Virus record (IMG/VR): IMGVR_UViG_3300017989_000089
Location: 64,001-83,039 of that record
Length of the DNA stretch: 19,039 nt
Source of the DNA: a virus
Lineage: Duplodnaviria > Heunggongvirae > Uroviricota > Caudoviricetes
Direction: 5' to 3' (one strand)
Under the pieces are notes generated by a model. The model saw only the letters and a program-made list of their open reading frames with translations. It did no database searches and had not been told where the DNA came from. Numbering within the stretch: the first letter of the stretch is position 1; the number at the start of each line of letters is the position of its first letter. Of the stretch, positions 5,651-11,626 are shown piece after piece. The position numbers and the translations under genes were made by a program.

Positions 5651-6217
5651 TCAATCGATGTAGAAGGGCTCGCCCTCGGGCTCCTGCTCGGCGTTGCGGA
5701 TCTCGTTCCAGAGAACCCGGATTTGGCCGCGGCAAATGGAGTACCCCATTCCTTTGTACTTGATGACCCTGCTGAGGGTCCCAAATGGGAGAATTAGGGG
5801 TGGCATCAGAATGAGGCGGCGACCGGCGAGGTCGTGCCAGAAGTTACGGTGGCACCAGAACTCCTTGGTCGCAAGATCTATGCCAACTGCGGCTACCGTG
5901 AGGTCAAATCCCTCCAGAACCACCTTTATGGAAGGAAAAGTCGGGCCAACAACATCGTAGGTCAGATCCGAGTTGATGATCCAACGCCGAGGCTCGGAGC
6001 CCGCCGACTTCCATTTATCGTCGCCAAGCTGGTCCACAATAATACGCTTCCGCTGCTTCTCGTCCTTTACGAAGACGTCGACATCCTTGGGCTCTTCCCG
6101 GGCGAATAGGCGGCGCAGGGCTCCCCCACATACCCATCCTTCCTCGATCTCGAGCCCGCTGATGAACCAGTCGAGTCGCTCTTTGACGTGGGGTGGTAAG
6201 GTCTGTTTTTCTATCAT
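5651..6217 (-). CDS. class II nucleotidyltransferase (CCA-adding enzyme / poly(A) polymerase head domain)
   Basis: GGALRRLF...KDVDVF matches the GGxxR...DxD signature; FDLTVAAVG resembles the (R/F)DFT motif; C-terminal RxxKY..GY. Confidence 0.8.
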   Translation of the reverse strand: MIEKQTLPPHVKERLDWFISGLEIEEGWVCGGALRRLFAREEPKDVDVFVKDEKQRKRIIVDQLGDDKWKSAGSEPRRWIINSDLTYDVVGPTFPSIKVVLEGFDLTVAAVGIDLATKEFWCHRNFWHDLAGRRLILMPPLILPFGTLSRVIKYKGMGYSICRGQIRVLWNEIRNAEQEPEGEPFYID

Positions 6218-6424: not shown

Positions 6425-6697
6425 TCAGTTAGTTGCGGCCTTTTCTGCAGCCTTAAACTGGTCTCCGAGTGCCTTGCTATCCGCGGCCACATTCTCGAGC
6501 CACTCGAGCGGATTTTGGCCGAGTTCGCCCACCAACTGACAGGCGATCACAAGGAGAATCCCGGCGATCCCGAACTTGATCTCGTCATCATCGAGGTTGT
6601 AGATGTTGCGAATGTTTTCGTCGATCTCCCCATGGGCCTGCTGGAGGGCGGCGAGATATAAGTTGGTTTCCTTACCTCCTGGCGTGTGTCTTGGCAT
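6425..6697 (-). CDS. hypothetical protein
   Basis: AAGGAGG RBS, 90 aa. Confidence 0.75.
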   Translation of the reverse strand: MPRHTPGGKETNLYLAALQQAHGEIDENIRNIYNLDDDEIKFGIAGILLVIACQLVGELGQNPLEWLENVAADSKALGDQFKAAEKAATN

Positions 6698-7211: not shown

Positions 7212-7453
7212 ATACCCTCCATTATAAAGCTCATTGCAATGAAGTAGAGCAAGAAGAACAGCCACAGGATGAACAGGAGGATCTCTGGTGCGAGATGCAG
7301 CCTCTTGGAGATTCGCCTCCCGAACCTGCAGAAGAAACTTGCGAGCGTGCGGCATAGTTCACTTGTCATATAACACTCGCGGTTTCGGTCGAACTCTTCC
7401 AGCCATGCGATCAACTTCCTCTTGAGAGAGCCAGGCGATCTTCGGGACCTCAC
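7208..7453 (-). CDS. single-pass membrane protein (start uncertain, possibly 7369)
   Basis: C-terminal hydrophobic helix ILLFILWLFFLLYFIAMSFIM. Confidence 0.55.
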   Translation of the reverse strand: MRSRRSPGSLKRKLIAWLEEFDRNRECYMTSELCRTLASFFCRFGRRISKRLHLAPEILLFILWLFFLLYFIAMSFIMEGM

Positions 7454-7580: not shown

Positions 7581-7942
7581 GACCAACCCTCAAGAGCGAC
7601 CCAAGCGGCTTCGATCGCCTCTTCCCTTGATTCCTTACCTTTGCTGGCGTTGATCGTGTAGGCAACACGAAGACACCAACGTGCGAGACGGATCCAGTGA
7701 CGCGGGCTACCTCCATAGGCCAATGTCGTCCATTGGGGAGCAGCCTTCCATCCTCCGGGGACAAACGCAGCAGCATCAATCTGGATATCAGCAGAGCCTT
7801 TTGACTTGGGCTCTCGCGCAGCGCGGATATGACGTAGGCACCCAACACGGATTGGAACAGTGACCATCATTTCTCTGGTTCCATTCGTTGCGGACTCGTC
7901 CGGAACCACGATCTTTTTGAATGTCACTCTCTTAATGATCAT
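7577..7942 (-). CDS. hypothetical protein
   Basis: 121 aa, ATGA-coupled. Confidence 0.7.
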   Translation of the reverse strand: MIIKRVTFKKIVVPDESATNGTREMMVTVPIRVGCLRHIRAAREPKSKGSADIQIDAAAFVPGGWKAAPQWTTLAYGGSPRHWIRLARWCLRVAYTINASKGKESREEAIEAAWVALEGWS

Positions 7943-8184
7943 ACCGCGAACCTCGCGACTTCATCGACTTTGATGTTGTCGTAGTTGTCCTGGAAGTGGA
8001 ACGCGAAGGGCTCTCCCATTCCGACATAGATGGTGCGCAGGCAATTCGGGCAGGCGTATCGATCACTCGATATCTTGTAGTAGGGTGATCCATCTTCGGT
8101 GATCATCTCGATGTCGACCCCGTTCTTTTGAGGGCGCATCTCGATGTTGCAGTCACCGCAGATTGCTCGAGGAACGTGTGCCAT
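7939..8184 (-). CDS. Zn-ribbon hypothetical protein
   Basis: TAAGGAGG RBS; CGDC...CPNC. Confidence 0.8.
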   Translation of the reverse strand: MAHVPRAICGDCNIEMRPQKNGVDIEMITEDGSPYYKISSDRYACPNCLRTIYVGMGEPFAFHFQDNYDNIKVDEVARFAV

Positions 8185-8204
8185 GATGCCTCCTTATCTT
8201 CAGA

Positions 8205-8739
8205 GGTTTTTGTTGGGTGGTTTGGGACTAAGCAGTATCCCCCGAAGGTACTAACGGCTACTAACCGCTTTCCCTCCACGTAGCCTCCGTACGCGATTGG
8301 GAGGACTTCGGTTGCTTCCCCTGCTCGGGCCGCAGATCCTTCCGTACCACCCGTTCTGTTCACACTGGATTGAACCAGTAACTCCCTTTTCTGGCTCTCA
8401 CGAAGGAGAGAGGGGCGCTATCATTTAGCTAGTGAATCAGACCGTATAAATCCAAGTAGCCAGTCACCGAAGTGAGAGGCGGAGACCACTCCGGAATCGA
8501 ACCATAACCCCCGGCCTACGGTACCGCGACCGCTGGCTACCCTTGCAAGAAATAAGTCCCGGGTGGGGTTCTTAAGGCTAGAACCCCACGAACACCCCAA
8601 GGCTCAACCGAGTTGCCTAGTGGCCACCGACAATCGGCTATATTGCCAAGGCTCATGATACCAGTAGCCGCCGCCCCTGCCTTTGACCTCGGGCCCATCA
8701 ATTCGACCCTGGTATACGCCGGTCATTGACGACGACCAC
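8205..8739 (-). ncRNA. large structured ncRNA with RNase P RNA-like motifs and topology
   Basis: Own promoter, no credible CDS, C(UUCG)G and T-loop hairpins, long-range helices; motifs AACCCCACCCGG, GCAAG, GGCUACUUG, CUAGCUAAAUGA and ACAGAAC in the same order as bacterial rnpB; CR-I GAAAGUCC not found. Confidence 0.6.
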
Positions 8740-8745
8740 ATAACT

Positions 8746-8774
8746 ACGGTACCACACATCCGCGGCAATGTCAA
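8746..8774 (-). promoter_or_regulatory. sigma70-type promoter with TGTG extended -10, driving the ncRNA
   Basis: TTGACA (8774-8769), 17 bp, TACCGT (8751-8746). Confidence 0.75.
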
Positions 8775-8858
8775 CCTAGGCGCTCAAGAAAGATGTCAAC
8801 CATTTCAGGTTGACTAAGCCAAAGTCAACTGATTTCGCTTGACTAAGCCTTTTCACGC

Positions 8859-8981
8859 TTATGGCCATAGGTTTAGTAAGTACAGTATCAGCATCAGGAG
8901 CAGCACAGGACTAGTCTGGAGCAGGAACGTCTTCCACGCTATCTCCCAGGTGGACCAGGTTGGATCTATGATTATCCTCAT
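8859..8981 (-). CDS. 40-aa membrane protein (not in ORF track)
   Basis: MRIIIDPTWSTWEIAWKTFLLQTSPVLLLMLILYLLNLWP; ATGA-coupled. Confidence 0.6.
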   Translation of the reverse strand: MRIIIDPTWSTWEIAWKTFLLQTSPVLLLMLILYLLNLWP

Positions 8982-11434: not shown

Positions 11435-11626
11435 GGAGAACCTAGGCGGGTAGGATGACTGCAAAAATTGCAGGTGGCGTGCTGGAGGTTGCCTCTGGGG
11501 GCGCAGCCGCTGGCTCCCCAAATGTAGGGAAAAGCCCCCGTGGGGATTCCCCTACGTGGTGAATAACACGCACCGCTAAGTGCTTGATACGCAACGACTT
11601 ACGAGGACTGGCATGCTTCTTGATCC

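Follow-up and report, generated by a model that had tools for sequence, protein, structure and literature searches.

Does a gene-free stretch of about half a kilobase in a tRNA-rich phage encode an unusual relative of the RNase P ribozyme, or does it encode a structured RNA of another kind? The window analyzed here (19,039 nt) forms the final 19 kb of an IMG/VR phage contig of 83 kb. ARAGORN finds 27 tRNA genes in this contig, all on the plus strand and all upstream of the window, and the Rfam tRNA model (RF00005) recovers 25 tRNAs in the genome, none of them within 8185-8860. The original prediction described the minus strand of 8739-8205 as a promoter-driven RNA with an RNase P-like core, that is, either a rewired or permuted RNase P-derived ribozyme or a new large class of phage non-coding RNA (ncRNA). 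Here we assess the coding status, conservation, promoter and fold of this locus (features are collected in Table 1), and subsequently weigh the explanations that could account for it.

Table 1. Features of the RNA locus and its surroundings, in window coordinates
Feature	Position	Strand	Details	Basis
Palindromic operator-like repeats (two, 26 nt each)	8795-8820 and 8824-8849		GTCAAC-N8-10-GTTGAC plus TAAGCC	Repeat search
Gene-free stretch	between 8859 (end of 40-aa ORF) and 8184 (start of 81-aa gene)	minus		ORF lists
RNA promoter	8746..8783	minus	GCGCCTAGG 8783-8775; -35 TTGACA 8774-8769; -10 TACCGT 8751-8746	
5'-terminal stem-loop	8664..8739	minus	12-bp basal stem GUGGUCGUCGUC / GGCGGCGGCUAC; tip variable	
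Central hairpin domain	8563..8651	minus	outer helix 8651-8645/8603-8597	
Long hairpin of central domain	8639-8626/8621-8607	minus	GGCC loop	
10-bp hairpin of central domain	8589-8580/8572-8563	minus		
Compensatory pairs, central domain	8650/8598, 8632/8614, 8631/8615, 8588/8564		second and third adjacent	
Module 1 (multi-branched)	8455..8542	minus	closed by GGUAGCCAG/CUGGCUACU ('P15' of the original prediction)	
Module 2 (tRNA-like cloverleaf)	8355..8441	minus	MFE structure is a cloverleaf, z -2.46	
3' domain, about 140 nt	8215..8352	minus	closed by GGGUGGU 8352-8346 / ACCACCC 8221-8215	
Ribosome-binding site	8197-8191	minus	AAGGAGG	Sequence
81-aa zinc-ribbon-like protein, first gene downstream of the RNA	ATG at 8184; ribosome-binding site plus gene 7939..8197	minus		
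Stops in the 8783-8103 frame	8606-8604; 8423-8418	minus	TGA TAG at 8423-8418	

The claim that the stretch is free of genes held throughout. The ORF lists contain just short frames with TTG or GTG starts over it, an independent gene call on the identical contig likewise leaves a 794-nt gap at the RNA locus, and the stop-to-stop frames of the stretch, searched on both strands, match no Pfam or PHROG family. The period-3 signal carries no information in the genome of the window. One minus-strand frame (8783-8103) has only three stops in its 680 nt, fewer than expected by chance; its translation has many Gly, Arg and Ser residues and matches no family, and the frame is not kept in L031, a syntenic metagenomic phage contig that carries the single homolog of the RNA we found. 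The corresponding gap of L031 has 12-17 stops per frame, and the conserved blocks of the two RNAs differ by indels of 1, 1, 11 and 14 nt. Given these indels and the presence of stops in every frame of L031, the conservation described below does not come from coding.

L031 was reached through a full HMMER search with the 121-aa protein encoded two genes downstream of the RNA, which returned one relative, of 104 aa. This contig carries 80-aa, 104-aa, 76-aa and Gad2-like genes together with a 931-nt gene-free gap, and nhmmer aligns window positions 8680-8204 with L031 2215-2709 (E 2e-51), with more blocks elsewhere in the gap. The sequence identity between the two phages amounts to 91% for the 3' domain, 90% for the cloverleaf module and 87% for the central domain, above the DNA identity of the five flanking genes (50-69%); for the 5' stem-loop and module 1 it amounts to 42%. 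The RNA is 530 nt long in the window phage vs. about 900 nt in L031.

Several routes to additional relatives returned no further copy. The region was compared by blastn with 50,697 phage records, contigs of viral, metagenome and genome origin were scanned for exact or degenerate words, and protein searches were anchored on the 81-aa gene (an orphan) or on the Gad2-like gene. Homologs of the 97-aa upstream gene were found in different contexts with the RNA absent, none of the homologs of the 127-aa gene (in Stenotrophomonas, Variovorax and other phages, and on four IMG/VR contigs) is accompanied by the RNA, and the homologs of the 109-aa gene are all in different contexts. Phages with relatives of one neighbouring gene infect Proteobacteria. 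R1, a covariance model built on the 3' domain, and R2, its equivalent for the central domain, matched nothing but the two known copies when run on 207 kb of DNA, and R1 found no match in four related virus records.

Some other loci are worth recording in their own right. A related 84-kb IMG/VR phage (L016), which shares the 127-aa gene at 56% identity, carries genuine tRNA-Pro and tRNA-Met genes (6509-6583 and 7351-7423) among its small early genes, 1-2 kb downstream of the shared gene and on the same strand. On a 94-kb metagenomic phage contig, a 654-nt gene-free stretch (L027:8909-9563) is provided with a promoter (TTGACA-N17-TAAGAT) and a terminator (hairpin plus T-run), has no Rfam match and is dissimilar to the window RNA; judging from these sequence features, it is a candidate for another large phage ncRNA. 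Further, a G+C-rich stretch of 747 nt without genes (L028:7254-8001), which precedes a homolog of the 109-aa gene of the window, contains a T-arm (GGCAGGTTCGACTCCTGCC) followed by ACGGGCGCCA and is called by neither ARAGORN nor Rfam.

That the RNA has its own promoter, as originally proposed, was borne out at the level of sequence by the presence of the sequence elements, by two further copies in the window, and by the conservation of the -35, the -10 and the upstream GCGCCTAGG, all of which are unchanged in L031 in an alignment where the spacer sequence differs. The spacer is 17 nt long and ends in TGG (extended -10; TGG-TACCGT at 8754-8746), and the transcription start is predicted near 8740. 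A consensus promoter scanner missed the site because TACCGT matches TATAAT at just three of six positions. The consensus of the copies, CGCCTAGGTT(ctcc)TTGACA-N14-TGN-TANNNN, occurs three times on the minus strand of the window (11446, 11386 and 8780), and these copies are probably the phage's early promoter family. The copies at 11446 and 11386 form a tandem pair where the leftward early arm begins, and the copy at 8780 is internal, before the RNA. The palindromic repeats are 29 nt apart and directly upstream of the RNA promoter; they are absent at the L031 locus, where a gene extends to the promoter.

On the downstream side, a scan of 8740-8185 found no terminator-like site between the RNA and the 81-aa gene, which has a homolog of 80 aa (59% identity) in the equivalent operon of L031. 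A 188-aa protein (window 5651-6217, minus strand) is assigned to Pfam PF26128 (Gad2) in precomputed gene tables, matches PHROG nucleotidyltransferase families and shares 63% identity with its counterpart in L031. As Gad2 acts against Gabija, this Gad2-like gene may be an anti-defence gene within the early operon of the RNA. The phage occurs at sediment and seawater sites. Among the public runs listed as carrying the stretch there is no RNA run; in the DNA runs compared with it the sequence is identical, which leaves no population variation to exploit.

The idea that the window RNA is a rewired or circularly permuted RNase P-derived ribozyme, acting on the many pre-tRNAs of this phage, draws on four or five short words (J5/15-P15, CR-IV and CR-V-like) that follow the order of E. 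coli rnpB, on T-loop-type hairpins, and on a genome with as many tRNA genes as noted above. All of these motifs and hairpins are located where they had been reported, and the rnpB words are truly in E. coli rnpB (232, 296, 326 and 347). The colinear order is thus present in the window, and its word chain reaches the upper tail of the shuffles (73 vs. 54 +/- 10), a score equaled in 5 of 200 shuffles and in one of 112 pieces of the genome, which is marginal for a resemblance chosen afterwards. A gapped alignment to rnpB, however, is at shuffle level, with 114 of 300 and 176 of 300 dinucleotide shuffles scoring equal or higher. The comparison with Rfam that had been suggested as a check also turned out negative: when all 4227 families were scanned, none reached its gathering score in the window, and the two hits at E<=10 over region 8100-8900 were both noise. 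RNase P models RF00010 (type A) and RF00011 (type B) remained without a hit at E<=10 across the 83-kb genome, whereas the same searches were positive in 11 of 14 control genomes.

The helices and conserved strands of RNase P fare no better. E. coli rnpB gives an MFE z-score of -2.98 in the test in which the whole stretch, at -0.25, is no more stable than its shuffles. The proposed P1- and P2-like helices both have a pair probability of 0.000; a partner as good as that of P1 (10 of 12 pairs) is also available to 178 of 300 shuffled 12-mers, which is the level of chance, and at the equivalent place of L031 P1 has no partner. Forcing the nested P1-, P2- and P15-like helices together with the 10-bp hairpin costs +21.7 kcal/mol. 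The original prediction was correct that the CR-I strand (GAGGAAAGUCC) is absent, as neither GAGGAAAGTCC nor even GAAAGTCC is found in 8739-8205. In L031, ACAGAAC has become ACAGAGT and AAUGA has become AACUA, GGCUACUUG and GCAAG are missing, and the motif order is altered, the module with the CR-IV/CR-V-like words being found upstream of the central hairpin. The GGGUGGU/ACCACCC helix is real, which favors an RNase P origin at first sight, but it merely closes a local domain of 140 nt. A search of viral contigs for the rnpB-like pattern GGCTNCTTG-N-CTAGNTNAATGA gave five matches, none of them RNase P by Rfam and none resembling the region; four of the five lie in one conserved block, which we read as putatively coding. 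Because the rnpB-like motif order occurs in the window phage alone, we consider the RNase P question settled. That is, an RNA with no covariance-model match, no CR-I, P1 and P2 at chance, unconserved motifs and no excess stability over its whole length is almost certainly not a derivative of RNase P, and the resemblance to this ribozyme is coincidental. A phage-borne rewired RNase P would have been remarkable; the claim fails.

The results support a different architecture, namely a string of modules that includes tRNA look-alikes, rather than a single RNase P-like core. Modules folded alone give z-scores of -3.3, -2.5 and -1.9 in the window and -3.6, -4.1 and -2.5 in L031, values that are flattered by module borders picked after folding. 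The 5' stem-loop (z -3.28; 1 of 200 shuffles as stable) has a counterpart in L031 (z -3.61; 0 of 200) that retains the basal stem and has a different tip. For the central domain, RNAalifold predicts 27 pairs, with four compensatory changes, one one-sided change and no broken pair, and slid controls of this domain show no compensatory pair. The perfect 10-bp hairpin noted originally is confirmed here, with a pair probability of 0.86 and one compensatory change. Substitutions in the predicted helices always keep the pairing except for one G-to-A in this hairpin, at a position that RNAalifold excludes from the helix.

The 3' domain contains, inside its closing helix, CCUCC paired with GGAGG and a hairpin of variable length. 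Among its 39 RNAalifold pairs, three show compensatory changes, all in the closing helix, one changes from G.U to G-C, and none is broken; when the 3' partners were shifted by 1-3 columns, 0-1 compensatory pairs remained. The closing helix, which the original prediction had put in the place of P4, has a pair probability of 0.97. The second of the two proposed UUCG loops (8246-8243) is at its reported place but is not predicted as a loop: it reads UCCG in L031, and its bases pair long-range with 8344-8338, with a G.U to G-C change. The other (8471-8468) does close a hairpin, UCAC-UUCG-GUGA, in module 1.

Over both blocks, 66 predicted pairs include seven compensatory and two one-sided consistent changes and no broken pair, numbers that come from one pairwise comparison of two family members and from a program, RNAalifold, that picks covariation-favouring structures. 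A shuffle control with two sequences, which has a floor of about 1 in 2^n, gave 80 of 500 and 32 of 500. Each RNA has six or seven G.U pairs, which are A.C mismatches on the opposite strand, and hence the fold is specific to the promoter strand. In summary, the locus is conserved above its neighbours, has no reading frame and, as judged from two sequences, shows compensatory changes on one strand. Consistent with these results, the second alternative of the original prediction, a new large phage ncRNA class, has stood up well: the element is non-coding, promoter-driven and better conserved than the neighbouring genes, and covaries on the strand of its promoter.

Between the central and 3' domains lie two modules with features of tRNAs. 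Module 1 contains a T-loop-type hairpin, GGUUCGAUUCC (8503-8493), together with the UUCG hairpin. In L031, the 11-nt GGUUCGAUUCC is retained and the closing stem consists of 11 bp of unrelated sequence, GGGAUGGGAGG/CCUCCCGUCCC (z -2.54). The P15-like pairing of the original prediction, GUAGCCAG/CUGGCUAC, forms when the module is folded alone, but its pair probability at full length is about 0 and it is not conserved as a sequence. As to the two T-loop-like hairpins that had been pointed out, the one at 8503-8493 is thus kept in the relative, whereas the one at 8379-8364 has a loop of 6 nt, not the canonical 7 nt.

Module 2 comprises an acceptor-like stem of 9 bp that has a single bulge, D-like and T-like arms (GCUA-AAUGA-UAGC and ACUGG-UUCAAU-CCAGU, respectively) and an anticodon-like arm that is expanded; it holds the words CUAGCUAAAUGA and ACAGAAC that had been compared with rnpB. 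Its T-like and anticodon-like loops have 6 nt each, vs. 7 nt in tRNAs. The counterpart (L031:2036-2112) is 90% identical, lies upstream of the central domain and is missing 14 nt of the anticodon-like arm; ARAGORN reports it as tRNA-Met(CAT)-like at a 90% threshold (z -4.05). At the window locus, ARAGORN finds no tRNA with default settings and makes two calls, module 2 included, only at an 80% threshold, and the tRNA-like modules have neither a 3' CCA nor the nucleotides that are canonical for D-loops and T-loops. Retention of the acceptor-, D- and T-like arms, combined with an anticodon arm that is free to vary, fits a tRNA mimic, not a decoder. No tmRNA model (RF00023 and permuted forms) matches in the window, where ARAGORN gives a permuted call at the 80% threshold only.

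The different position of the cloverleaf in L031, where other tRNA-like modules stand in its place, underlines the modularity of the RNA, and the distance from the end of a tRNA-like module to the 3' domain is 2-15 nt in both phages. One L031 module (L031:2433-2546, 114 nt) has a 7-bp acceptor stem with G3.U70, two long arms, a T-arm (GAGGG-UGCAAAU-CCCUC) and a weak tmRNA-model match (11.1 bits), with no tag frame noted. We also considered and rejected an attP site or a copied 3' end of a host tRNA (none of 185,579 species genomes contains the 20-mer exactly), a Ro60/Y-RNA system (the genome has no TROVE gene) and a replication origin with iterons (only trivial tandem and direct repeats are present).

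Taken together, we hold it moderately probable, judging from sequence and predicted fold, that 8740-8215 on the minus strand is a modular structured leader RNA of the early transcript, a member of an uncatalogued two-member family whose tRNA-like modules would act as processing signals. According to this model, the conserved sigma-70-type promoter would start a transcript near 8740 and, as no terminator follows the RNA, transcription would continue into the operon of small early genes. The transcript would fold as separate modules (i.e., 5' stem-loop, long hairpin domain, T-loop module, non-decoding cloverleaf and 3' domain), with the tRNA look-alikes possibly serving as signals for host tRNA-maturation enzymes, namely RNase P and either RNase Z or RNase E. 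Cleavage at these signals, predicted to give ends near 8441, 8355 and 8352, would free the upstream structured RNAs and leave the 3' domain behind, either as a stable RNA on its own or as the folded 5' end of the early mRNA. Both transcript ends and any processing are predictions, and recognition by RNase P or RNase Z is purely something we infer, given that the modules have neither CCA nor canonical loop nucleotides and do not match the Rfam tRNA model. It is tempting to go one step further and to propose that the central and 140-nt 3' domains, once cut out by the tRNA-like punctuation, act in trans on host translation or RNA decay, the 3' domain presenting its paired CCUCC and GGAGG elements; we regard this extension as speculative and rather unlikely.

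Alternatively, it is possible that the RNA is a purely cis-acting leader, which stays unprocessed and controls the early operon via terminator resistance, mRNA stability or translation, with the put and EAR RNAs, which make RNA polymerase terminator-resistant, as the model. The continuity of RNA and operon with no terminator in between, the position ahead of the operon that is retained in L031, the conserved stable stem-loop at the 5' terminus, and the CCUCC and GGAGG elements of the 3' domain, 20 nt before the ribosome-binding site, would all suit such a leader. However, the 3' domain and the 80-aa gene of L031 are separated by about 125 nt and by an extra 67-aa gene, and therefore the two phages do not share control of any one ribosome-binding site. 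Further, known antitermination RNAs are 70-120 nt long, far below the 530-900 nt of the window and L031 RNAs, which additionally contain swappable tRNA-like modules. For these reasons we view a purely cis-acting role as unlikely, although it deserves more weight than the two possibilities that follow.

The tRNA-shaped modules, with anticodon arms that do not decode, could also belong to a trans-acting decoy for a host tRNA or ribosome-rescue factor, for instance anticodon nucleases, tRNA-modifying enzymes or SmpB. There is a precedent in a phage tmRNA reduced to its tRNA-like domain (TLD), and a molecule similar to such a TLD-only tmRNA inhibits tmRNA, perhaps through SmpB titration (PMC4131195). 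The L031 module with the G3.U70 acceptor stem and the weak tmRNA-model match would fit this scenario, but the window's own RNA has no equivalent of it, and the domains that are conserved best, central and 3', are not tRNA-like; we thus consider a decoy quite improbable. Finally, the locus could be a functionless remnant of a decayed tRNA cluster or of dead genes. The degenerate state of the tRNA-like modules, the minus-strand frame with so few stops, and the fast turnover of tRNA arrays in such phages, together with the real tRNAs among the early genes of a relative, are what one would expect of a remnant. Decay is difficult to reconcile, however, with blocks that are more conserved than the genes around them, with helices maintained by compensatory changes and with a conserved promoter, and dead genes are difficult to reconcile with frames that match no protein family. 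Hence, a remnant appears very improbable to us, and we favor the modular, processed leader RNA.

How does such a leader RNA compare with known large RNAs? The nearest in layout is GOLLD. GOLLD and ROOL are phage-carried ncRNAs of several hundred nucleotides, of open function and often near tRNA islands, and in GOLLD the 3' region is conserved, the 5' part less so, and the linker sometimes holds tRNAs (bioRxiv 10.1101/2024.12.08.627333). The window RNA likewise is phage-borne and of such size, combines a variable 5' part and tRNA-like modules with a conserved 3' domain, and is associated with tRNAs, a likeness of layout as opposed to membership. The all-Rfam scans, run on the window at the gathering threshold and on 8100-8900 at E<=10, list neither GOLLD nor ROOL among their matches, no Rfam family matches the L031 RNA above the weak tmRNA-like score, and ROOL (RF03087) has no match in the genome, with zero matches in the control genomes too. 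(In the Rfam copy used, RF01998 is group-II-D1D4-1, not GOLLD.) The window RNA also differs from GOLLD and ROOL in that its 3' domain has just about 140 nt, that it is a terminator-less mRNA leader, and that it has two known members; no result points to the formation of multimeric cages.

A second likeness is to non-decoding tRNA mimics inside longer transcripts, which act as processing signals or imitate tRNAs (e.g., tRNA punctuation in polycistronic transcripts, YrlA Y RNAs and the TLD-only tmRNA of mycobacteriophage DS6A). The L031 module with G3.U70 resembles the DS6A molecule (PMC4131195), and the YrlA Y RNAs of bacteria and mycobacteriophages differ in that the genome of the window has no Ro60/TROVE gene. 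The Y RNA, tmRNA and tRNA models of Rfam have no match at the window RNA. What we describe is an RNA that is absent from Rfam and better conserved than the surrounding genes, in a phage heavily invested in tRNA biology, and its central and 3' domains are compact (90-140 nt) and suited to direct biochemistry. If the trans-acting extension of our model is true, the locus would be one example of a widespread, undescribed type of modular phage RNA with tRNA mimics. Together with GOLLD and ROOL, it adds to the case for large modular RNAs being common in tRNA-rich phages.
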